Shown here: positions 2,162 to 20,829 of the stretch, one piece after another
How positions within the stretch are numbered: the stretch's first letter is position 1
Layout: every line of letters begins with the position of its first letter
Sequence record: OR352942.1
From: Escherichia phage AV112
Direction: 5' to 3' (one strand)
Length of the DNA: 64,000 nucleotides
Notes under the pieces: model-generated
What the model was told of the DNA's origin: nothing
The model's input: the letters and a program-made list of their open reading frames with translations, nothing else
The model's database searches: none
Made by a program: the position numbers and the translations under genes

Positions 2162-2305
2162 CTAGTTAAAGCATTCATACTTTGCTTGTAGTCCAATCAT
2201 AATCCATCCGATTATAAGAGTCGGAATCATTACTGGAGCCGTTAAGCTCCAGTAGATAGTCATGACAAGCATCAATAGTAAAAGTCCTATTGTTATTGCT
2301 TTCAT
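2162..2305 (-). CDS. Small hydrophobic protein, 47 aa (below the ORF-track cut-off)
   Basis: Manual translation gives MKAITIGLLLLMLVMTIYWSLTAPVMIPTLIIGWIMIGLQAKYECFN. Its ATG overlaps the TGA of the isomerase gene (ATGA), with a GAGG box upstream. Confidence 0.3.
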   Translation of the reverse strand: MKAITIGLLLLMLVMTIYWSLTAPVMIPTLIIGWIMIGLQAKYECFN

Positions 2306-2937
2306 TGTTCGCCTCGTAACATGGCACCTAGTGCACCGCCAGGGTGGAACTTAAGGAAGTCATTAGAGGTAAATCCACGTTCAGACGAAAGGTTGATAGC
2401 AAACGTATCGATAAGCGCTAACAACAATGTAGTGGACATGGTCGGAGCCAGAGAATTCTCATCAACCTCTACTGCGATGCCTGTACAGAACGTATAATCA
2501 AAAAGAGCTTCGTATTCTTGTGGAATGTCCGGGTTACAATGCAACAGAATCTGTTTGACGTTCGGACGAATCATTTTAAGATGCTTAGCCACGCCTATCA
2601 TTTCTTCAGTTTTACCAGAACGACTAATATGAATCAACACATCATTAGGCGCAATGAATCCTGCATCACCGTGAGAATAATGTCCAGTGTTCAAGTACAT
2701 ACTCGGGATACCGAGTGAAGCAAATGTCTCAGAAGCTTTAGTTGCAATATTAGCATTCTTACCAACACCTGTAATAATTACTCGGCTTTCATAATTACTA
2801 AGTCCAGGACGTCGAAGAGTTTCTAGAATAGCATTATAACGAGCAGGGTTTTGACTAATTACTTTGGCCATAGCGGCCAAAGAAGAAGCTTGTTTTATGA
2901 TTGCGTCAATAGCGATAGTAATAGGAGTAGTTTTCAT
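2302..2937 (-). CDS. SIS-domain sugar-phosphate isomerase (arabinose-5-phosphate isomerase KdsD/GutQ-like)
   Basis: Contains the SIS signature HISRSGKTEE and the overall SIS-domain pattern; it sits directly downstream of gene 43, where T4 carries imm, 42 and beta-gt. Confidence 0.6.
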   Translation of the reverse strand: MKTTPITIAIDAIIKQASSLAAMAKVISQNPARYNAILETLRRPGLSNYESRVIITGVGKNANIATKASETFASLGIPSMYLNTGHYSHGDAGFIAPNDVLIHISRSGKTEEMIGVAKHLKMIRPNVKQILLHCNPDIPQEYEALFDYTFCTGIAVEVDENSLAPTMSTTLLLALIDTFAINLSSERGFTSNDFLKFHPGGALGAMLRGEQ

Positions 2938-2977
2938 ATTTCTCTCATTTAATTAGTTTGCCGTCCATGTCATTATA

Positions 2978-5689
2978 TCAAAAATCGAACATATCGAACA
3001 GAGATGCTTTCTTCTCGTAATCGAGTTTCGCTGCTGATGTGAATCCTTCAAGTGGTTTAATAAATGTCTTCTCAAGGAGAACAGTGTAGTCCATCCAATG
3101 AAGTACGTCGTCTTTAATTAAATCTGTGATTTCAGTACCAGAAGGCCATGCGATACATTTATCACCGAATGGGTTTCCTTCACGTAAAGGCAGAACATAT
3201 ACTTTTTCACCTTCTACAACTTGTGGTGCATCGATATTACCTTTGATAGCACGGTTATACGTCAGAATTCCACGAATATGGAATGGGCATTTAGGACCAG
3301 GGAATCCACCTACATCATATTTAGCAATGTTATTCGCAGAAGATACTGACGCGATGCTAATATAATTCAATTGACGGAATTCTTTTTCAAACTCTTTAAA
3401 ATATTCTTGTAATGATTCTTCGCCTTCCTGAAGCATACGACGAATACATTCTTTAAGAGCTTTCTGTACTGCTTTAGGAGTCGAAGATTTCTGAGTCTCT
3501 AGACCCATGATTTTGAGTTTAGGCTCAGCGTATCTGGTTCCTTCCATATCCCACACGTTTAATGCATAACGTTTCTTACCAGTCCAGAATCCACCAATAC
3601 CTTTAGAACCGAGTGGAGGCCCAGCGATAGCTTCTCGGTCCATGAACATTAAGTGTTGTTTATTGTTCATGTATTCACACATTTCACGGAAACCTCTATC
3701 AATAGCTGGTTCCATACGTTCACGTGCAAACTTATCTAAGAAGTCTACCCAATGGTTGGTATCACGGAATTTAGATTCACCAACCTTATCGATAATTTTA
3801 TCAGCAGATACGTAAATAGAGTCTGTATCACCATAAAGAACGAAAGCTTCACCTTCTGTGCCACAAACTTCATTCAGATATTCATTAACTTTACGTTCAA
3901 TCCACTGTAAAGCCATTTGCCCGAATGTTGTGATTGCAGTAGCATTACGCAAATCGTAATAACGGAACCAAACGTTGCCAAGTGCACCATAAAGTGAGTT
4001 GATAAGCAATTTACGGTTAATTTGGGCAGTCATACCTGCAACTTCAGTACGTTGAGCTCTAAACAACATTTCATTAAGAGATTTAGCAGACAACTTTTTA
4101 ATCTTTTCTTTAATCTCATCACTGAAGTCGAAACGATAATCAACATCTAATGGTTCGTCAACAGAAAGATTAGGATTATGCAATGCCTCTTTAATTATTT
4201 CACCATTACGTTGAGCTGCAAGCATGTAACCTTTATGTTCTTTACGTTGATTAAAGACCTTAGTGATTTCAGTTGGAACAACACCGTCACGGTCTTTATA
4301 ATACATCATGCCGTTAGGAGAACAACTGTACACATCAGAAGGACGTTCAGCAACAGCGTTAATATAATCATGTAATGGAGCTACTTTAAACGTTCCTGCT
4401 ATTGTTTCTGGGCTAATATTCACTTGGCGAATAATACTTGGATACAGAGATGTAAGGTCGAAACTCATTACATATTTGTATCGATTTGGAATAGGTTCCT
4501 TAACAAAAGCGCCGGGATAAGGTTGAACCGGATGAGAACGACCTTGTGGAATCACCTTGTTCTGCTCTTTAAGGCTATTAAAAATAATAGCATCCCATGT
4601 TTTAATTGGGCTAAACACAGATTGAATCTGTATCTTAGCATAATAACCCATGTCCAAACTCAAGTTGATGAACTGACGTTTAGCATCAATTTGCAATACA
4701 CGATACACGTCGATAATGTTATAAGAAATATATCGTTGGTGATTGCTTTCACGAAGCTTAGAAATAGGGCCGTCATATTTCAGTTTACCAACGTTCAATT
4801 CAAATTCTGAAATGTAATCCAGAGAATACGACGGTTGATTGGTAAAAGAGAATTTTTTGTAAAGGTCAATGTAATCAAGAACAGAGATACCGAACAATGT
4901 AATGATTTCACGAGAACCATACATGTTTTCGATAACTTTAACACGAGTTTTACGATGTGGTGATAAACGTTTCGCAGTAGATTCGCCAAAAATATTCTTG
5001 ATTCGGTTATACACATATGGAATATCAAATGACTCAACGTTCCATCCAGTCAAAATGACAGGAGTTTTCTGTTGCCAGAAGTTGAGATATTCCATCAACA
5101 ATTCTTTTTCGTTATCGAACGGCATATAAATGATTTTATCGATAATTTCGGATGGGACTTCATCACCGCCTTGTTCTTGAAGCTTAGCCGCAATTTCGAT
5201 AGACCATTCTTCCACATTCCCGTATGGAGAATTCAAAAGGTCAAATACGTAGAACCTGTCGTCAATTGAGTCATAATGAGTGATAGCATCAATCGGATGT
5301 TTTGCTTGTGACGGCTCAGGGAACCCGTCTGGAGATGTTACTTCGATGTCGAAGTTAGCCACACGAATTTTTGTATGGTCGTATTTGATTTCATAGTTAT
5401 AAGTGTCAGACAAATACGCCAATTTGAAATCGTCCATGCCAAGTGCTTCAAGTCCGATATCTTCCATGCGTTTAATCCATTGGGAGGCATCACGCATATT
5501 GGCGAACAACTTACGAGTACACGGCTTACCGTAGATATCGAAATATTTCGTAGCCTGACTTTCCGGACAATGAGCAAACAGTGATGGTTTATATTCTACT
5601 TCACGAGTACGTTCACGGCCGTTAGAATCGATGTAACGTTCAAAAATTGAATCACCAATCTGTTCAACCGTTAAGTAAAATTCTTTCAT
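2978..5689 (-). CDS. 43: DNA polymerase gp43 (family B)
   Basis: 903 aa, starting MKEFYLTVEQIGDSIFERYIDSNGRERTREVEYKPSLFAH; collinear with recalled T4/RB69 gp43, with exonuclease and polymerase motifs such as YGDTDS. Confidence 0.97.
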   Translation of the reverse strand: MKEFYLTVEQIGDSIFERYIDSNGRERTREVEYKPSLFAHCPESQATKYFDIYGKPCTRKLFANMRDASQWIKRMEDIGLEALGMDDFKLAYLSDTYNYEIKYDHTKIRVANFDIEVTSPDGFPEPSQAKHPIDAITHYDSIDDRFYVFDLLNSPYGNVEEWSIEIAAKLQEQGGDEVPSEIIDKIIYMPFDNEKELLMEYLNFWQQKTPVILTGWNVESFDIPYVYNRIKNIFGESTAKRLSPHRKTRVKVIENMYGSREIITLFGISVLDYIDLYKKFSFTNQPSYSLDYISEFELNVGKLKYDGPISKLRESNHQRYISYNIIDVYRVLQIDAKRQFINLSLDMGYYAKIQIQSVFSPIKTWDAIIFNSLKEQNKVIPQGRSHPVQPYPGAFVKEPIPNRYKYVMSFDLTSLYPSIIRQVNISPETIAGTFKVAPLHDYINAVAERPSDVYSCSPNGMMYYKDRDGVVPTEITKVFNQRKEHKGYMLAAQRNGEIIKEALHNPNLSVDEPLDVDYRFDFSDEIKEKIKKLSAKSLNEMLFRAQRTEVAGMTAQINRKLLINSLYGALGNVWFRYYDLRNATAITTFGQMALQWIERKVNEYLNEVCGTEGEAFVLYGDTDSIYVSADKIIDKVGESKFRDTNHWVDFLDKFARERMEPAIDRGFREMCEYMNNKQHLMFMDREAIAGPPLGSKGIGGFWTGKKRYALNVWDMEGTRYAEPKLKIMGLETQKSSTPKAVQKALKECIRRMLQEGEESLQEYFKEFEKEFRQLNYISIASVSSANNIAKYDVGGFPGPKCPFHIRGILTYNRAIKGNIDAPQVVEGEKVYVLPLREGNPFGDKCIAWPSGTEITDLIKDDVLHWMDYTVLLEKTFIKPLEGFTSAAKLDYEKKASLFDMFDF

Positions 5690-9146: not shown

Positions 9147-10835
9147 TTATGAAACAGTCATTACCGTAAATCGTCCAACTTTGCTCATTTGAAGATGTTG
9201 TCCATAACGTTGAGGGTCATGGTCTCGATGAGAGATAATGAACACATTAGTATTTTGTAAACTTCCAAGAATGGTATCTATAGCCTTAACAGCCTCAGAA
9301 TCGACAGCACCATCAAAAACCTCATCAAGAATCAGAGTGTTGATTTTAACACCAGAGACCTTTTCAGCAATATCTCGCCATGTAAACAACAATGCGATAT
9401 CGATACGTGCCTTTTCACCTTGACTAAATGAAGCATAACTAAAATCTTCACGACCACGTGATTTTATAGATTCATTGAATTCTTCGTCAATAGAAAACAC
9501 GTAATCAGCTTCCATGATTTTAAGATAATAGTTAATCTGCTTGTTGAACAGAGGCACATATTTTTTAATGATAGCACCTTTAATACCAGAATCTTTTAAC
9601 ATATCTGTGATAATACCACGATGGTATTTTTCAAGAACGATATCAGATTTTGTTTTAATGATTTTATCAAGTTCTTTTTGAAGCAAAGCTATCTCATCAG
9701 CATGGTCGATAAATTCCGCCGAGGCTTGTTCTATTGCAGCTTTAACTTTCTTAGCTTTATCAATAGTGGCAATCATTGCTTGTTTCTTGGTACGAATATC
9801 AGATGCAAGGTCCTGTTTAGTCTTAACATTAGCTCTATATTCGTCCACTAGGACACTCAGATTATCTCTGTGGCATGTAAGTTGCTCGAATGAGTGATTA
9901 CATTCGTGAAGCTTATCGGTAATCTTAGAGACAATAGGATCACCCTGGTGCAACTGCGATGCACAAGTAGGACATGTACCACCATCATGATACATCTTAA
10001 TAACTTTGTTATATGAGTCGATTTTAGATTTAATCAAGAATGCTTCTTGTCCGATCTTGTTGAATGCCTCAGTAGGGTCTTCGTCAAGAACGATATTAAG
10101 TAGACGCTCATTAGCTTCTTCAATTTCTGCTTTTAATGAACGAGCTTCTTTGGCTAGGTCGTCATACATATTCTGTAGACGCGCTACATTATCACCAGAT
10201 AATTTCTTTTGTCGTTCGATATTCTCGTTATAAATCTTAATTTGTTGGATAACACCATCTTTCTTGGCATCGAGAACTTGTCCCTGGGAATTAAGTTCTC
10301 GAACTTGAGACTTATTGATTTTATCCATTTCAGCGAGTGTGCCGACTTCTAAAAGGTCTTCGACAAGTTTTCTGCGAGCAGGGGTGCTAAGAGCCATGAA
10401 AGGGGTATACCCTGCCGTCCCAAGCACAACGATTTGTTTAAAAGACGCGTATGACATTCCGATGCTGCGTTCAAATTCTTCTTGGAAGTCACGACTGCTG
10501 GCAGATTCATCAAGACGAACACCGTCAACGGAGATTTCGAAAATATTGGGCTTTTGGCCACGTTTAATGAAGTATTTTTTACCATCGAATTCCATCCAAA
10601 GCTCAACTAAGAGCTCTTTCTTGTTCGTGCTATTAATGATTTGCCCTTTCTTAACATCACGAAATGGTTTACCGAAAAGTCCGAAAGTAATGGCTTCTAA
10701 CATCGTAGATTTGCCACCACCATTTTTACCAGTGATTAATGTCTTTTGGACTTTATCTAATTGGATATCGATAAAATTTTGCCCAACAGACATTATATTT
10801 TTATAACGAACACGATTTAATTTAAATGTTTTCAC
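9147..10835 (-). CDS. 46: Recombination endonuclease subunit gp46 (SbcC/Rad50-like ATPase)
   Basis: 562 aa; N-terminal Walker A GKNGGGKST, a long central coiled coil and a C-terminal ABC signature region; position matches T4 gene 46. Confidence 0.92.
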   Translation of the reverse strand: MKTFKLNRVRYKNIMSVGQNFIDIQLDKVQKTLITGKNGGGKSTMLEAITFGLFGKPFRDVKKGQIINSTNKKELLVELWMEFDGKKYFIKRGQKPNIFEISVDGVRLDESASSRDFQEEFERSIGMSYASFKQIVVLGTAGYTPFMALSTPARRKLVEDLLEVGTLAEMDKINKSQVRELNSQGQVLDAKKDGVIQQIKIYNENIERQKKLSGDNVARLQNMYDDLAKEARSLKAEIEEANERLLNIVLDEDPTEAFNKIGQEAFLIKSKIDSYNKVIKMYHDGGTCPTCASQLHQGDPIVSKITDKLHECNHSFEQLTCHRDNLSVLVDEYRANVKTKQDLASDIRTKKQAMIATIDKAKKVKAAIEQASAEFIDHADEIALLQKELDKIIKTKSDIVLEKYHRGIITDMLKDSGIKGAIIKKYVPLFNKQINYYLKIMEADYVFSIDEEFNESIKSRGREDFSYASFSQGEKARIDIALLFTWRDIAEKVSGVKINTLILDEVFDGAVDSEAVKAIDTILGSLQNTNVFIISHRDHDPQRYGQHLQMSKVGRFTVMTVS

Positions 10836-11697
10836 TTAAATTTTTCCTCATGAATTCAGAAACTAAAGCCTGTAAAGAACTTTGTATAGGATATCCTAAA
10901 TTGACTAAATTTTTAGAAAAAGTCACATATTTAGGTTTGTTCATTTTAACCCATTCATCGTAAAGCATATCAAAATTTTCCCAATGATATCCTTTTCTTC
11001 TAGATTTCAAATGAGTGTCTCTAACTTTAGGATTTTTCCAACTGCGTGAAACTCCAGCCGATAATGATTCTCTATATTCGGCTGTTTTAGATATTTTACG
11101 ACAAGCATCCAAATGTTTTTGTTTATTAATAGGGTCACTAAACCACTTTTGGGTCATAATAGAGACGGTTTCTTTAAATTCCTTTGAACTTGTCATAATT
11201 CTGTGTTTCTTTAAATTTTCCGGATTTTTAAACCATGCTTTTAAAGCTTGACTAATCTTAATTCTATTATCCTGATTGGAATAGTATAATGTCATTTTTA
11301 TAGAATTAACTTTACAAACATTTTCGAATTCTAAAGAATACGCCTCGGCTATATTATTTAGTTCATGCGTTGTACAATTTAAATTAAATCGCCCGGTATA
11401 CATTCTTTGAAGCGCGTTAATCATCTTGTGGTTGCCAGTTTTTGCCAAAATGCTATGTGCAATAAAATGGTTATAATGACTTAAATGACACAAGTTCCAT
11501 TTACATGTTTTAAAATCTGGAAAAATAGATTTTGGTAGTATATGGTGAACCTGAGTCAGTCCTTTTACTTTATTAGTTGAATTAGTTTTTATAAAGTTTA
11601 AATACTCATCAAGTCCTTCCCACGAAGGGAAGGAGGTTTTAAGAATTTTATAAATTTGAGTTTCATAATCAGTCTTCGTCATTATACGCGTCCTCAA
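10822..11697 (-). CDS. HNH homing endonuclease (free-standing, Mob-like) with NUMOD-type DNA-binding repeats
   Basis: HNH core QVHHILPKS...CKWNLCHLSHYNHFIAH, followed by repeated WFKNPE / WFSDP / WKNPK helix motifs. It is inserted between 46 and 47 and overlaps the gp46 start by 14 nt. Confidence 0.8.
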   Translation of the reverse strand: MRTRIMTKTDYETQIYKILKTSFPSWEGLDEYLNFIKTNSTNKVKGLTQVHHILPKSIFPDFKTCKWNLCHLSHYNHFIAHSILAKTGNHKMINALQRMYTGRFNLNCTTHELNNIAEAYSLEFENVCKVNSIKMTLYYSNQDNRIKISQALKAWFKNPENLKKHRIMTSSKEFKETVSIMTQKWFSDPINKQKHLDACRKISKTAEYRESLSAGVSRSWKNPKVRDTHLKSRRKGYHWENFDMLYDEWVKMNKPKYVTFSKNLVNLGYPIQSSLQALVSEFMRKNLSENI

Positions 11698-11926
11698 TAC
11701 ACGCTTCAGCCATTTTAAGAATAGAGCCAGGAGTATCGTTGTCCATTATATTAAAGCTAAATTCAACAGCCCAGTCGGTGCAGACATGAACTGCTTTAAC
11801 TTCATTACCTTCAACGCGTAATGGCTCAATCCAATACTTGATAGTGTTCTCGAATCCATCATCATCTTTAACGTCCATTTCAACTTCAAGCCTGAGTCCA
11901 GCATTGTTAAATTCATCTAAAGTCAT
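11669..11926 (-). CDS. Hypothetical acidic protein
   Basis: 85 aa ORF between gene 47 and the HNH gene. Confidence 0.45.
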   Translation of the reverse strand: MTLDEFNNAGLRLEVEMDVKDDDGFENTIKYWIEPLRVEGNEVKAVHVCTDWAVEFSFNIMDNDTPGSILKMAEACIEDAYNDED

Positions 11927-12942
11927 TGTGTTGCCTCAATATAAAGTTCGTTGGAATATTTGACCAGCGCTTCTCTGTCTTCGTCTGAGATATCTGGAAT
12001 CGCGTCAATATATTCTTTAATGATATCTTGAAGAGATTTAATCTCGATTTCCTGGTCGTCATCAGATTCAACACTGTTATCAACTTTAGAAACCATACGA
12101 AGAGAGTGAACTACTTTTTCAAGTTCAGATTCAAACTTAGTCAACTCTGAATCAATTTCTGATACTATAACACGTACGGCTAGATTAGTATAATCAGAAT
12201 AATTGATTTTGCCTTTAAACGGATAAGTGATTCGTCGATGCCATGTTGTTTCGTTAGGAATAAATTCCATACGTTCAACATCAGTGTCAAATACCCAAAA
12301 TCCGCGCGGGTCGTTCTCATCACCTGCAGTAAGGGTCCATGGTGTCCCAATATATTTGACGTTAGCAGCTTCAGAGATTGTGTGGAAGTGGCCGGACCAG
12401 ACTTGTTTATAGGTCTTTAAGAAATCAGGTTCAAGCCCATGAGACTTCATTCCTTTATAGAAATAAAAACCATTCAGTTCCCAGTGCCCAACACAATACG
12501 CTGCGGAAGAAGTCTTGATGTGCTCTAAGATTTCACCTGTATTTTCTTCGCACATCCATGGAACGATATCAATCAGACATCCGTCAAAATCTACAGTAGT
12601 TGGATGCTCGTAAATAGTAAAGTTTTCAAATTGAGTTAACAATTCAGAAACAGTGTTAGGTGTTATTGTATTCTTAAACGCCATGTCATGGTTTCCTATC
12701 GTGACATGAACGTGAATGCCTGCTTTAGAAATCATATCAACGATTTCACGATTGAATTCCATTGTACGATGTGTTATTGCTTTACGGACGTCAAACCAAT
12801 CACCGTACTGAATCCAAGTTTTAATCCCATGTTTCTTAGAGTATTCAATTGCTTGACGAATACCATCACGTTGAATATCTTGAACCCATGGGTCGTCTTG
12901 TTTGACTCCGATATGGAAGTCGCCTAAGTGCAAAATTTTCAT
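11923..12942 (-). CDS. 47: Recombination endonuclease subunit gp47 (SbcD/Mre11-like)
   Basis: 339 aa; MKILHLGDFH...GNHD phosphoesterase motifs; collinear with recalled T4 gp47. Confidence 0.94.
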   Translation of the reverse strand: MKILHLGDFHIGVKQDDPWVQDIQRDGIRQAIEYSKKHGIKTWIQYGDWFDVRKAITHRTMEFNREIVDMISKAGIHVHVTIGNHDMAFKNTITPNTVSELLTQFENFTIYEHPTTVDFDGCLIDIVPWMCEENTGEILEHIKTSSAAYCVGHWELNGFYFYKGMKSHGLEPDFLKTYKQVWSGHFHTISEAANVKYIGTPWTLTAGDENDPRGFWVFDTDVERMEFIPNETTWHRRITYPFKGKINYSDYTNLAVRVIVSEIDSELTKFESELEKVVHSLRMVSKVDNSVESDDDQEIEIKSLQDIIKEYIDAIPDISDEDREALVKYSNELYIEATQ

Positions 12943-17262: not shown

Positions 17263-17733
17263 TTAATCATGTTTCCACACCCCGTCGGTATTTGTCCAAA
17301 GTCGCTGATTATCTGATCCTCGCCACAGTTTTTTGGTCGGAAGATTTTTCTCATACTTCCCATCAATAATAACATCAACATATTTAAGCATTTCTAGTTG
17401 TTTAATATCTTCAAACTTATATCCTGTCCACAACCAAATGCTTTTATTGGGATAAAGTTTTTTTACTGTTTGAACAATGCAATGAACAACATCTTGGTTA
17501 TCAGGATAGAGAGGGTCTCCTCCAGTTATAGTTAATCCTTCTATATAATCATTATTCAAACATTCAATTAATTGTTCCAGCGTTTCACCGGTGAATGGGA
17601 TACCATTTCTAGCGTTCCATGTTGATTTATTATAACACCCCTCGCATTTATGCAAACAACCTGTAACGAAAAGAACGACCCTGCAACCGGGGCCATTCAC
17701 AAAATCGCAAGGATAAAATCTATCATAATTCAT
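17263..17733 (-). CDS. nrdG: Anaerobic ribonucleotide reductase activating protein NrdG (radical SAM)
   Basis: 156 aa with the CxxxCxxC cluster CLHKCEGC; immediately downstream of nrdD. Confidence 0.92.
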   Translation of the reverse strand: MNYDRFYPCDFVNGPGCRVVLFVTGCLHKCEGCYNKSTWNARNGIPFTGETLEQLIECLNNDYIEGLTITGGDPLYPDNQDVVHCIVQTVKKLYPNKSIWLWTGYKFEDIKQLEMLKYVDVIIDGKYEKNLPTKKLWRGSDNQRLWTNTDGVWKHD

Positions 17734-19547
17734 TGGTGTTTAACCCTATGCATGATTTCTTTATTTTTGCCGAGATTAAATCCGCGTTCGTTCGGATTTC
17801 CAAGATAACCGCATGTTCTTCTTATTGTGTTCATCTTTTTAGGATCAGTTTCTCCGCAAACTGAACAAACAAATCCGGTTTCAGTAGGAGTCATTTCATG
17901 AGTACTTCCACATGTAAAACATTTATCTACTGGCATATTAACACCAAAATAATCTAAATGTTGTGCAGCATAATCCCATACAGCCTCAAGACCTTTTAGG
18001 TTATTTTTCATATCAGGAAGTTCAACATAAGAAATGTGACCACCAGTCGCAATGAAATGATATGGCGCTTCACGAGAAATCTTTTCAAACGGAGTAATAT
18101 TTTCTTCTACTGAAACATGGAAACTATTAGTGTACCAGCCTTTATCAGTAACATCTTTTACACTTCCATATTTTTCTGTATCAAGTTTACAGAAGCGATA
18201 ACAAAGGTTTTCAGCAGGAGTAGAATACAAGCTAAAAGCAAAACCGGTTCTTTCAGTCCACTGCTTAAGACGAGCATTCATTTTAGTTAAAATTTCTTGC
18301 CCAATATCACGTCCGGCAAGAATATTCAATTCGTGAATACCAATGTATCCTAAAGACACTGAACTTCTACCGTTTTTAAATAACTCAATTATATCGTCAT
18401 CAGGTTTAAGACGAACCCCGAATGCACCTTCTTGGTAAAGAATAGGAGCAACAGTAGCTTTAACTCCTTTTAAGGAACTAATTCTACACATCAAAGCTTC
18501 AAAACACAAATCCATTCGCTCATTGAACAATTCGATAAATTTCTGTTCATTGAACTGTGTTCCAATATAAGAATCTAACGCAATGCGAGGAAGATTCAGT
18601 GTTACAACACCGAGATTATTACGTCCATCAAGAATTTCATTACCAGTCGAATCTTTCCATACGCTCAAGAAACTACGGCAACCCATTGGAGAAACAGGAA
18701 TAGACGAACCAGTGATAGCTTTATTGTTCTTAACTGAAATAATATCAGGATACATTCTTTTGCTTGCGCATTCTAAAGCAAGCTGTTTAATATCATAGTT
18801 CGGGTCGTCTTTATAAAGATTAACACCCTCTTCAACGAACATAACAAGTTTAGGGAAAATAGGAGTTATTCCATCACGACCAAGGCCTTTAATACGATTT
18901 TTCAGAATTGCTTTCTGAATCATTCGTTCAGTCCAGTCAGTTCCAGTACCAAATGTAATTGTTACAAAAGGCGTTTGTCCGTTTGAACTAAAGAGAGTAT
19001 TTACTTCGTATTCATACGCTTGGAATGCATCATATACGTCTTTTTCTGTTTTAGATTGAGCATAATTCAACGCATCAGCGATTTGCCATTTTTCTGCATC
19101 TTCAATATGTTTTGCATAGGTGCGTTTAACATAAGGAGAAAGAACTTTATCGACATTCGCAAATGTAGTTCCACCATACTGATGCGAAGCAACCTGTGCG
19201 GTAATTTGTGCCATAATTGCAGTAGCAACACCAATCGATTTAGGCGTTTCAATTTGAGCATTGCCTAATTTAAATCCATTCTCAAGCATTCCTTTTAAAT
19301 CTACTAAACAGCAATTAGTAAAAGGCAATGATATACTGTAATCTAAATCATGAAAATGAATTAATCCAACATTATGTGCATTTACAATATGACTTGGAAG
19401 AATACGACAAGCGATATGTTTAGAAACAATACCGGCCATTAAATCTCTTTTTGTTGGAAAGACACGAGAATCTTTGTTGGCGTTTTCGGTATTTAATTCT
19501 TTATCTTTATTTGAAATAAAATTTAAAACATCTTTCTCTAAAGACAT
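17730..19547 (-). CDS. nrdD: Anaerobic ribonucleoside-triphosphate reductase NrdD (glycyl radical enzyme)
   Basis: 605 aa with the C-terminal glycyl-radical motif RRTCGYLGNP and a Zn-ribbon CxxC pair; one uninterrupted ORF, so no intron. Confidence 0.95.
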   Translation of the reverse strand: MSLEKDVLNFISNKDKELNTENANKDSRVFPTKRDLMAGIVSKHIACRILPSHIVNAHNVGLIHFHDLDYSISLPFTNCCLVDLKGMLENGFKLGNAQIETPKSIGVATAIMAQITAQVASHQYGGTTFANVDKVLSPYVKRTYAKHIEDAEKWQIADALNYAQSKTEKDVYDAFQAYEYEVNTLFSSNGQTPFVTITFGTGTDWTERMIQKAILKNRIKGLGRDGITPIFPKLVMFVEEGVNLYKDDPNYDIKQLALECASKRMYPDIISVKNNKAITGSSIPVSPMGCRSFLSVWKDSTGNEILDGRNNLGVVTLNLPRIALDSYIGTQFNEQKFIELFNERMDLCFEALMCRISSLKGVKATVAPILYQEGAFGVRLKPDDDIIELFKNGRSSVSLGYIGIHELNILAGRDIGQEILTKMNARLKQWTERTGFAFSLYSTPAENLCYRFCKLDTEKYGSVKDVTDKGWYTNSFHVSVEENITPFEKISREAPYHFIATGGHISYVELPDMKNNLKGLEAVWDYAAQHLDYFGVNMPVDKCFTCGSTHEMTPTETGFVCSVCGETDPKKMNTIRRTCGYLGNPNERGFNLGKNKEIMHRVKHQ

Positions 19548-20359
19548 AATTCTAATTTATCCTTTTGAAATTCTTCGTCTAAATATGGGTTCCAACCCAT
19601 TTTAAACCTTTTGATGAAATTATCAATTCTAAATTTCGGTAAGTTTAAATCCGCAAAAATAGATGATTTACTTTTAAAATCTGGACCTAAATAATCATAT
19701 AAAATTTCTGCGTATTTTAACCATAATATACAAGTACCAGATTTAATTGCGTTCGGAGTTTTCCAAGGTTTTACACCATACATCGGATTTCCACTTCCTT
19801 TATGCCTGATAGAAGATGAAATTCCAATTTTAATTTTAGCTTCCTTTGTATGCGAAAATCCACGATGCGGATTTTCTTTCCAGTATTTTTTAGAAGCTTC
19901 TGATATTTTCTTTCTGGCTAAATTAGTATGATGCTTTCCATAAAATCCATGATTTTTGCCTTTATTACGATTTCTTTTAATCATGGTTATTGATTGCTTT
20001 TCTCTAGTTTCTTTAGAAGGAGAAATACCATATGTCGTAAATTTGCCATCAGCATATGCTAAATTAAAATACTCTTTATTCCATACATCTTTTTCTATAT
20101 TCTTTTGAAATTCAGCTTCAATGCTAGTTATTTGTTCATCTCCGACTAATTGAAAATATAATATTTCAACTTTCGGCGTTTCTTTCAATAAGGCTTTTTG
20201 AAATTCGGAAGATGACGAAGACGAATAATAAAATTTACCATTTTTATCAATAATATTCGTTCCATCAAAAGTGCAATTGGTTTTACTTCCAATGTAATAA
20301 TATGGTGGGGTTTTAGCATTAATTCTATTAATAAATGATAGTTTATATACTACATTCAT
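19538..20359 (-). CDS. GIY-YIG homing endonuclease (free-standing, Seg-like) with NUMOD3 repeats
   Basis: N-terminal VVYKLSFINRINAKTPPYYYIGSKTN (GIY-YIG core); C-terminal repeated KNHGFYGKHHT / ENPHRGFSHTKEAK / GSGNPMYGVKPW helices. It sits between 49 and nrdD and overlaps both. Confidence 0.75.
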   Translation of the reverse strand: MNVVYKLSFINRINAKTPPYYYIGSKTNCTFDGTNIIDKNGKFYYSSSSSSEFQKALLKETPKVEILYFQLVGDEQITSIEAEFQKNIEKDVWNKEYFNLAYADGKFTTYGISPSKETREKQSITMIKRNRNKGKNHGFYGKHHTNLARKKISEASKKYWKENPHRGFSHTKEAKIKIGISSSIRHKGSGNPMYGVKPWKTPNAIKSGTCILWLKYAEILYDYLGPDFKSKSSIFADLNLPKFRIDNFIKRFKMGWNPYLDEEFQKDKLELCL

Positions 20360-20829
20360 TTTAAACTCTTTCTAAGCTGCTTTTTGAATGAAGCTATTAA
20401 TTGTGTTTTGGTATCAGATTCATTATATTCAAATCCTCTTTGAAGCATCTCGGCCATCATTTCCTCTTTACCTAGTCTTGAGAACTCTTTAGTTTTGTCT
20501 GGAACAAAATTAGGATGGATATTATTATCAGAATAATCTTGTTTCAAATAAGCGAGAAGAGCTTCAAGCCATTCGAGGTAGTCGACATCACGTCCTTTAA
20601 GACCGGAACGGTTGAACTTATGCTTCATTTGACCTTCTGCTGCGTTGCACAGATTACAGAGTAATCCACGAACTCTACCGGCTTTTGGCCCGTTTAATTC
20701 ATGGTCGTGGTCAAGATGGTTACCTTGAACATCAGGGTCTAATTCACGGTGGCAAATAGGACACTTACCGTTCTGTGCATCATAAAATTTTTGTTTTTCT
20801 TCTTTATATTTTGCGCCTGATAATAACAT
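20356..20829 (-). CDS. 49: Endonuclease VII (Holliday-junction resolvase) gp49
   Basis: 157 aa; near-identical to recalled T4 endo VII, including CPICHREL...HLDHDHELNGPKAG...CNLCN. Confidence 0.94.
   Translation of the reverse strand: MLLSGAKYKEEKQKFYDAQNGKCPICHRELDPDVQGNHLDHDHELNGPKAGRVRGLLCNLCNAAEGQMKHKFNRSGLKGRDVDYLEWLEALLAYLKQDYSDNNIHPNFVPDKTKEFSRLGKEEMMAEMLQRGFEYNESDTKTQLIASFKKQLRKSLK

Follow-up and report, generated by a model that had tools for sequence, protein, structure and literature searches.

A stretch of 64,000 nucleotides of Escherichia phage AV112 (sequence record OR352942.1), hereafter the window, carries a 273-codon open reading frame (ORF) between gene 49, encoding endonuclease VII, and nrdD, in the anaerobic ribonucleotide reductase operon. 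We propose that this ORF is probably a functional cassette encoding a free-standing homing endonuclease of the SegG family, which would spread by break repair. A target within roughly the first 225 nt of nrdD, in phages devoid of the gene, has in our estimation about an even chance of being the right one. The 4.5-kb region around the gene is 100% identical to that of Escherichia phage AV113 (OR352943.1, a record filed under Tevenvirinae, Mosigvirus), and in the comparisons below the window allele goes under the name AV113. The ORF product is likewise 100% identical to the AV113 protein WPK34816.1, annotated plainly as "homing endonuclease".

The endonuclease gene has taken over the start codon of nrdD

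In T4 and in the Mosigvirus LF82-7, both devoid of a homing endonuclease gene (HEG) at this site, the stop codon of gene 49 overlaps the start codon of nrdD (AAAATGA) and nothing lies between the two genes. The ATG that starts nrdD in these HEG-less phages is, in AV113, the start codon of the endonuclease, and nrdD restarts 812 nt further on, at an ATG located within the last endonuclease codons. The Shine-Dalgarno sequence of this new start (AAGGA) sits within the conserved EFQKD codons of the endonuclease gene. The same restart arrangement is found in a homologue, 55% identical, carried by a metagenomic contig described below. The GC content is 27-31% across the endonuclease ORF versus 36-41% in its flanks.

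A preliminary description of the window, made from the sequence, had placed here a free-standing Seg-like GIY-YIG gene with NUMOD3 repeats, overlapping both neighbors and followed by an uninterrupted nrdD. This picture stands: the ORF shares 10 nt with nrdD and an ATGA with gene 49, it contains a NUMOD3 motif, and nrdD is a single ORF of 605 codons matching the NRDD domain over its full length. On the other hand, the term "intergenic", also used for the gene, has to be abandoned, as gene 49 and nrdD overlap by the ATGA in HEG-less phages with no spacer between them.

The gene appears to be a recent and repeated arrival in two genera

We found the endonuclease gene in 49 phage records, corresponding to about 43 distinct phages. 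Its location is invariably the gene 49/nrdD site, the copies have 96.5-100% identity, and about 46 of the 49 are full length. Its flanks are present in about 1,000-1,180 related records, 1,184 records matching the junction query in all; about 95% of the related phages lack the gene. Matches of the junction query extend over 589 nt in the HEG-less records listed, versus 1401, which corresponds to a net insert of 812 nt. The gene is therefore polymorphic, being present or absent at a single precise position in genomes that are colinear in other respects. A scan of IMG/VR added only two near-identical loci.

The carriers belong to distinct backgrounds. Gene 49 of AV113 is 99% identical to that of LF82-7 and 81% to that of T4, whereas the Tequatrovirus phages G8, TadeuszReichstein and Lv5cm possess a T4-type gene 49, only about 81% identical to that of AV113. 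The endonuclease gene itself is 97.8-99.4% identical between AV113 and these three phages. Such conservation of the gene (97-100% identity), in phages whose adjacent gene 49 differs by 24%, suggests that its transfer has been recent and repeated. The last 115 nt of gene 49 escape this divergence, with at most 6 mismatches out of 115 in every pair versus 84-87 out of 355 (24%) between genera elsewhere in the gene. This island of identity runs on through nt 1-240 of nrdD in T4 and LF82-7, which lack the HEG. The conservation of the gene 49 end could reflect either constraint or repeated gene conversion around a hotspot.

Strict linkage of the gene to a diverged nrdD 5' end

The carriers hardly differ from one another over the first 225 nt of nrdD (0-4 mismatches out of 225). 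Compared with HEG-less T4 and LF82-7, the same tract differs at 59-62 of the 180 alignable positions (about 33%), versus 8 of 180 between T4 and LF82-7 themselves. The divergence reaches 39% at the amino-acid level over 75 codons and stops at a sharp boundary. In AV113, which is LF82-7-like after codon 75, the proportions of synonymous (pS) and nonsynonymous (pN) differences are about 0.7 and 0.29 in the tract versus 0.17 and 0 at codons 76-175. At 95% identity or more, the tract is present in 49 records, equal in number to those of the gene, and the next-best matches do not exceed 75%. The tract is strictly linked to the endonuclease gene, so that the mobile unit would comprise about 1.05 kb, gene and tract together. 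Its limits are the last 115 nt of gene 49 on the upstream side and, on the downstream side, the conserved nrdD region coding for PFTNCCLVDLKGMLENGF.

We then mapped the end-points of the transferred segments at the sites where T4 and LF82-7 differ. The upstream junction never leaves the 115-nt conserved end of gene 49. The downstream junction is variable. It lies at about nt 225-246 of nrdD in TadeuszReichstein and at nt 258-267 in AV113, where a short T4-type patch is embedded in a Mosigvirus gene (informative sites at nt 246, 255 and 258 are T4-type, and the sequence is LF82-7-type from nt 267). In G8 it lies at about nt 384-396, with the reverse configuration of a Mosigvirus-type patch in a T4-type gene. 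Lv5cm is less clean, being mostly T4-type beyond nt 225 with scattered exceptions. These varied end-points, with their reciprocal patches, argue for several independent transfers, in both directions between the genera. Together with the 97.8-99.4% identity of the gene across genera whose gene 49 is 81% identical, they indicate a horizontal spread of the gene with co-conversion of its flanks. Tracts running into nrdD are the pattern expected if break repair begins downstream of the gene, and in T4 the cuts made by known free-standing enzymes lie hundreds of bp away from the genes encoding them (PMC2988022).

An older relative and decaying copies

The metagenomic contig L008 (Logan SRR27536177) contains at the same locus (2188-3180) a homologue with 55-58% identity. 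Upstream of this homologue stands what is left, over 55 codons, of an nrdD 5' end of HEG-less type (PTQRD); downstream of it comes a complete nrdD whose 5' end displays derived characters in common with the AV113 tract (PTKRD, ELNTENANKD). The linkage between gene and tract is therefore old. Judging from this contig, the element appears to have entered within the 5' region of nrdD, bringing with it a replacement 5' end.

In L008, the endonuclease changes frame near codon 50, with residues 1-50 read in one frame and the remainder in another, which denotes either a pseudogene or an assembly error. In phages Pu-Krd-SF3 and Pu-Krd-SF4 (PQ249397, PQ759884), the gene is 823 nt long, versus 822 nt, with a protein match of 91.7% identity that ends at residue 266, suggesting a copy frameshifted by a 1-nt indel. 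In FL18 (PP400780.1, contig L015, 614-2105), the endonuclease is fused after codon 201 or so to the last 17 or so codons of nrdD (ending in PWKTPSVVPWNLGKMKEMVKRVKHA and a stop codon), a deletion of about 2 kb having taken its C-terminal domain together with nearly all of nrdD.

Where the enzyme would cut

We propose that, in a mixed infection, the enzyme would cut the HEG-less genome near the locus, most likely within the first ~225 nt of nrdD. We favor this placement because the stretch is nearly invariant among HEG-less phages and rewritten in carriers. The break would be resected, and its repair would take the carrier genome as template, with homology arms provided on one side by the 115 nt conserved at the end of gene 49 and on the other by the conserved nrdD region coding for PFTNCCLVDLKGMLENGF. 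Repair would copy in the gene together with a presumably resistant 5' end of nrdD, with co-conversion tracts of variable length downstream. T4 SegG, which excludes T2 gene 32, is a proven GIY-YIG homing endonuclease (PMC2988022 Table 1; PMC2330249).

The best-surviving alternative, which we nevertheless consider unlikely, keeps the same homing endonuclease and moves its target to the gene 49/nrdD junction or to gene 49 itself, the insertion destroying the site and the tract being donor DNA dragged along. It would account for a gene beginning exactly at the ancestral nrdD ATG and for the unusual conservation, in all phages, of the 115 nt upstream, as a target would be conserved; the linkage of tract and gene, which predates the split between the AV113-type and L008-type genes, would also agree with it. 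However, the insertion point in L008 is located after nrdD codon 55 and not at the junction, and cutting at the junction would depart from the distant cleavage documented for the T4 free-standing enzymes (PMC2988022). Moreover, co-conversion is asymmetric, extending into nrdD and only minimally into gene 49, and the conserved end of gene 49 is identical in carriers, hence unprotected.

If the target does lie in the first ~225 nt of nrdD, one could go further and imagine a "self-immunising" cassette, in which the gene always travels with cleavage-resistant first 75 codons of nrdD and a new nrdD start. We put this forward tentatively, at somewhat less than even chances. Such a cassette would offer a means of entry into a coding region without intron or intein. 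The 55-codon remnant in L008 would then be the displaced original 5' end of nrdD, and the AV113 remnant would have been trimmed exactly to the old start codon.

The catalytic domain appears preserved

Residues 1-126 of the protein show 40% identity to T4 SegG (E 4e-27), and the protein matches PHROG 7504, "homing endonuclease" (1e-33). Aligned with hhalign, the family profile matches the I-TevI-type domains with an E-value of 3.3e-5, YYIG pairing with the YVG of I-TevI. Motif A (VVY5 ... Y22-I-G24) lies on strands 2-8 and 21-26 of the AlphaFold model, and Y5, Y22 and G24 are conserved in at least 90% of the family. Its two halves are 16 residues apart versus the usual 10-11, and the loop contains a short helix (10-15). 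In motif D/E, E81 aligns with the catalytic E75 of I-TevI and N99 with N90; E81 and Y97 are conserved in at least 90% of the family and FN is part of the family consensus. In place of helix 1, the protein has a hairpin-like segment of about 25 residues (27-50), an architecture also seen in T4 SegG. The model is confident for residues 1-105, with a three-stranded sheet plus helices in a GIY-YIG fold. The C-terminal half is of low confidence, the predicted local distance difference test (pLDDT) score being below 50 at residues 106-129, 196-216 and 241-273.

Downstream of the catalytic domain, one NUMOD3 unit (PF07460) passes the Pfam cut-off (6.3e-7, 29.7 bits versus 20.4), and the half-repeats that flank it (SHTKEAKIKIG and GSGNPMYG) are visible by eye only. 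The plural in the "NUMOD3 repeats" of the preliminary description is thus slightly generous. The C-terminal 88 residues match (E 4.4e-13) the C-terminus of a protein (P0004) whose gene lies, in another T4-like phage, between genes 59 and 32, that is to say at the position of segG, and they also show a weak yet colinear match to SegG residues 133-204. Further relatives at yet other loci, such as a protein (P0003) encoded beside gene 5, combine the same catalytic domain with different C-termini. From this domain composition, we consider the protein to be a two-domain SegG paralogue at a new locus. It is a paralogue and not SegG itself because it lies between gene 49 and nrdD rather than between genes 59 and 32. 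In GenBank, record MK962756 labels the gene "SegG", which is a mislabeled paralogue, the other annotations being generic.

The five sequenced copies of the gene that we compared are all intact ORFs, with pN/pS ratios of 0.04-0.36, and the gene is under purifying selection. Altogether, the retention of Y5, Y22, G24, E81 and N99, the homology with SegG, the confident model and these open, selected copies lead us to reject the possibility, raised in the preliminary description, that the ORF is a degenerate remnant deprived of its GIY-YIG core.

The Pfam GIY-YIG model (PF01541) does not match the protein at E<0.1, and the NCBIfam model TIGR01453, "group I intron endonuclease", matches it at 1.3e-4, below its cut-off. 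In a control, T4 SegG gave no Pfam match at all and I-TevII matched only SegE_GIY-YIG, below the cut-off. Since these proven enzymes are likewise missed, the Pfam GIY-YIG model appears blind to the SegG-like subfamily, and we rejected the lack of an above-threshold call as a sign of degeneracy. Several observations nevertheless weigh against an active enzyme spreading by break repair. The hhalign probability of the alignment with I-TevI-type domains is just 72%. In this alignment, the catalytic arginine of motif B, which in I-TevI is R27 on helix 1, falls in a gap without counterpart; its role might be played by one of the conserved residues R12, K26 and K42. At the family position GSSK, the protein reads SSSS. 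A Foldseek comparison of the model with the Protein Data Bank (PDB) retrieved nothing significant, and phmmer found no relevant match among PDB sequences. Furthermore, ordinary homologous recombination in co-infected cells might be enough to produce the mosaic pattern, with no endonuclease involved, and the diverged tract could be hitch-hiking donor DNA instead of a resistance allele. Some seg and mob enzymes, namely SegH and Hef, reportedly cut their own genome too.

One could thus wonder whether the gene is an inactive or decaying passenger, with an open ORF but no DNA cleavage, spread by ordinary recombination in the flanks. The missing canonical motif-B arginine, the SSSS sequence and the decay seen in relatives (the 1-nt indel of Pu-Krd-SF3/SF4, the truncation and fusion in FL18, the frameshift in L008) would all suit this idea. 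We nonetheless find it improbable in view of the retained catalytic residues, the low pN/pS ratios, the predominance of full-length copies (about 46 of 49) and their 97-100% identity across backgrounds 24% apart in gene 49.

The gene and the nrdD intron appear to be independent

In T4, nrdD is interrupted by a group I intron, and the preliminary description had named its enzyme I-TevIII. This is an error: the T4 nrdD (sunY) intron encodes I-TevII (T4 annotation; PMC2988022 Table 1), a GIY-YIG enzyme, I-TevIII being the HNH enzyme of the nrdB intron (PMC2988022). The endonuclease ORF of AV113 lies upstream of nrdD, outside any intron, and is not an intron-encoded enzyme of the I-TevII type. The continuity of nrdD was borne out by its alignment with T4: AV113 is precisely intron-less at the T4 site and the frame AYEY/EVNTLF is intact. 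Of the first 20 nt of exon 2, 7 differ between AV113 and T4, all of them synonymously. In this region (nrdD nt 539-560), T4 and G8 are alike, as are AV113, LF82-7 and TadeuszReichstein; the polymorphism therefore tracks the intron and not the endonuclease gene. About 300 nt of background-type nrdD sequence separate it from the tract of nt 1-225.

The gene and the nrdD intron are found together in 7 of the 49 carrier records, corresponding to five phages (G8, fPS-2, Manna, F26 and Lv5cm), each with its own conversion tract. Each element also occurs alone, T4 having the intron without the gene. We therefore rejected the idea that the two are mutually exclusive or functionally coupled, and neither the co-occurrence nor the comparison of the tracts gave any sign that the gene targets or protects the intron site. 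The suggestion of an intron-less allele targeted by, or protected from, intron homing is thus not supported.

It is accordingly very improbable that the endonuclease is tied to the nrdD intron, either targeting its insertion site and mobilizing it in trans, as mobE does with the nrdB intron, or marking a protected allele. Trans or collaborative homing by free-standing enzymes located beside introns is documented (PMC2988022; PMC2790892); the intron site lies just ~540 nt from the gene, and the AV113 exon-2 flank does differ from that of T4 (7 of 20 nt). But the T4 intron has its own active I-TevII and does without the gene, only 7 of 49 carrier records combine the two elements, and the nt 539-560 polymorphism segregates with the intron, with background-type sequence in between.

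Expression without a promoter of its own

No late promoter (TATAAATA) was found in or near the endonuclease gene. Sigma-70-like sites at the locus are at chance level (10 found versus 8.5 expected), and so are terminators. The predicted RNA folds are no better than those of shuffled sequences (z-scores of -1.6 at the endonuclease start, -0.75 at the nrdD start and -0.8 at the HEG-less junction), so that a control of translation by a hairpin is unsupported. We suppose that the gene, having no promoter of its own, would be read from the gene 49 transcript. Its translation would be coupled at the ATGA that serves nrdD in HEG-less phages, and nrdD translation would restart from the new ribosome-binding site and ATG in the 3' end of the endonuclease gene. 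Promoter-less cassettes form a known class comprising segC, segF, segG and several mob genes, and start codons overlapping the upstream gene are a habit of the T4 seg and mob genes (PMC2988022); the present gene resembles them in both respects.

That the protein has been domesticated as a nuclease or DNA-binding protein serving the phage, in nrdD regulation or in the competition with co-infecting phages, is also very improbable. The translation of nrdD now depends on a sequence inside the gene, which would favor its retention, and marker exclusion benefits linked genes (PMC2988022), but the ~95% of related phages without the gene keep nrdD working and no regulatory hairpin or embedded promoter rises above chance.

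Other endonuclease genes and features of the locus

The slot between nrdG and nrdD varies between phages. It is occupied by mobC in T4, by a 279-aa HNH-type gene in TadeuszReichstein and, in FL18, by a canonical GIY-YIG gene (276 aa) directly before nrdG. In Lv5cm, which cumulates three mobile elements around nrdD, this slot houses a third endonuclease gene. In AV113, nrdG and nrdD overlap directly and nothing is inserted between them.

A Seg-like gene named SegH, attributed to Sandegren et al. in 2005, is reported to replace mobC between nrdG and nrdD. The endonuclease studied here is not SegH, its locus being different and the AV113 nrdG/nrdD slot being empty. The gene in the TadeuszReichstein slot is not SegH-like either, since its HNH motifs make it mob-like. 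The window contains a second free-standing endonuclease gene, also mob-like, at 10822-11697 on the (-) strand, between gene 47 (11923..12942) and gene 46 (9147..10835). This 291-aa ORF displays HNH motifs (VHHILPKS...HYNHFIAH) and 34% identity to the endonuclease-like gene of the TadeuszReichstein nrdG/nrdD slot. The features of the locus are collected in Table 1.

Table 1. Features of the gene 49/endonuclease/nrdD locus (window coordinates unless a contig is named)
Feature	Position	Strand	Remarks
Free-standing homing endonuclease gene, SegG paralogue	19538..20359	(-)	273 aa, ATG start; ORF list
Gene 49 (endonuclease VII)	20356..20829	(-)	Pfam Endonuclease_7 + Endonuc-dimeris
nrdD, intron-less, 605 aa	17730..19547	(-)	full-length Pfam NRDD match, 3.6e-171
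nrdG	17263..17733	(-)	ORF list, Pfam
ATGA overlap of gene 49 stop and endonuclease start	20356..20359	(-)	sequence; comparison with T4 and LF82-7
Endonuclease 3' end overlapping the re-created nrdD start, 10 nt	19538..19547	(-)	sequence
GIY-YIG catalytic domain, aa 1-105 (Y5, Y22-I-G24, E81, N99)	20045..20359	(-)	
NUMOD3 motif, aa 130-153, inside a ~85-aa linker (aa 110-196)	19901..19972	(-)	Pfam PF07460
C-terminal SegG-type domain, putatively DNA-binding, aa 197-268 (PWKTP...W...GWNPYLDxEF)	19556..19771	(-)	
Endonuclease-linked divergent nrdD 5' tract, nt 1-225, codons 1-75	19323..19547	(-)	putative cleavage-resistant allele
T4-type patch, nrdD nt 226 to ~266, end of the AV113 co-conversion tract	19282..19322	(-)	informative sites
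Conserved last 115 nt of gene 49, upstream homology arm common to all backgrounds	20360..20474	(-)	
Empty T4 intron site in nrdD (between nt 538 and 539)	between 19010 and 19009	(-)	T4 alignment
nrdG/nrdD-slot endonuclease gene, TadeuszReichstein	L006 1225-2064		
nrdG/nrdD-slot endonuclease gene, Lv5cm	L007 1232-2062		

Comparison with known systems

Of the free-standing homing endonucleases, which drive marker exclusion and mosaicism among T-even phages, just a handful have, to our knowledge, been tested: SegA, SegB, SegC, SegE, SegF, SegG, SegH, MobE and Hef. Our literature search found no paper on an endonuclease at the gene 49/nrdD junction. The gene would represent a fourth mobile element of the anaerobic ribonucleotide reductase operon, beside the MobC/SegH slot and the I-TevII intron. 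AV113 versus LF82-7 and G8 versus T4 constitute natural donor/recipient pairs, and the unusually clean comparative footprint of the element predicts both the position of the cut and the bases that would confer resistance. As regards annotation, the gene should not carry the name segG, and the enzyme of the T4 nrdD intron should be given as I-TevII. Finally, phage-therapy isolates of two genera are exchanging the endonuclease/nrdD segment.

The closest known system is T4 SegG, whose gene lies between genes 59 and 32 and which cleaves T2 gene 32 some distance away, with co-conversion of that gene. The two proteins share a catalytic domain with 40% identity, the MNxVY...PPYYYIGSK motif, the hairpin replacing helix 1, the E...EYFNL motif and related C-terminal domains, and both are missed by the Pfam GIY-YIG model. 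Both genes are also promoterless, overlap the upstream gene and lie directly upstream of the gene that they affect. They differ by their locus (49/nrdD versus 59/32), by their length (273 versus 210 aa) and by an extra linker of about 85 residues with NUMOD3, an insert that SegG does not have. Since the identity of the C-terminal domains is low, the target presumably differs from that of SegG.

The position of the gene recalls the MobC/SegH slot and I-TevII, all of them being homing endonuclease genes clustered around nrdD. I-TevII has in common with our protein an Arg-less variant of the GIY-YIG domain (YIG...W.EY.SSSK) but, unlike it, is encoded in an intron. The gene also differs from mobC, which lies between nrdG and nrdD in T4 (T4 annotation; PMC2988022), a slot that is empty in AV113.

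Functionally, the enzyme would belong with the Seg enzymes of "intronless homing", and as such is an uncharacterised protein of a well-known kind. Like SegF with gene 56 and SegE with uvsW, it is a free-standing GIY-YIG enzyme whose gene stands beside the target gene, here putatively nrdD (PMC2988022; PMC2330249). In these systems, transfer co-converts the flanks, the target alleles of carriers and non-carriers differ, and marker exclusion is localized (PMC2988022; PMC2330249). What sets the present case apart is the extreme divergence of the linked nrdD allele, about 33% in nucleotides and 39% in amino acids, known here from sequence comparison alone. A linked and diverged tract of the target gene extends what is known of co-conversion and marker exclusion and is not a new principle.

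A last parallel can be drawn with the "transposition" of homing endonuclease genes into coding regions, exemplified by mobE in nrdA of phage Aeh1, by T4 mobA in gene 60/39 and by seg43(25) in gene 43 (PMC2988022; PMC3045599). Likewise, the L008 homologue sits inside the coding region of nrdD with a 5' fragment left behind, and the target is again a ribonucleotide reductase gene. Here, however, nrdD is not split in two functional parts: with its 5' end replaced in full, the gene is again in one piece, and AV113 keeps no remnant of the original.

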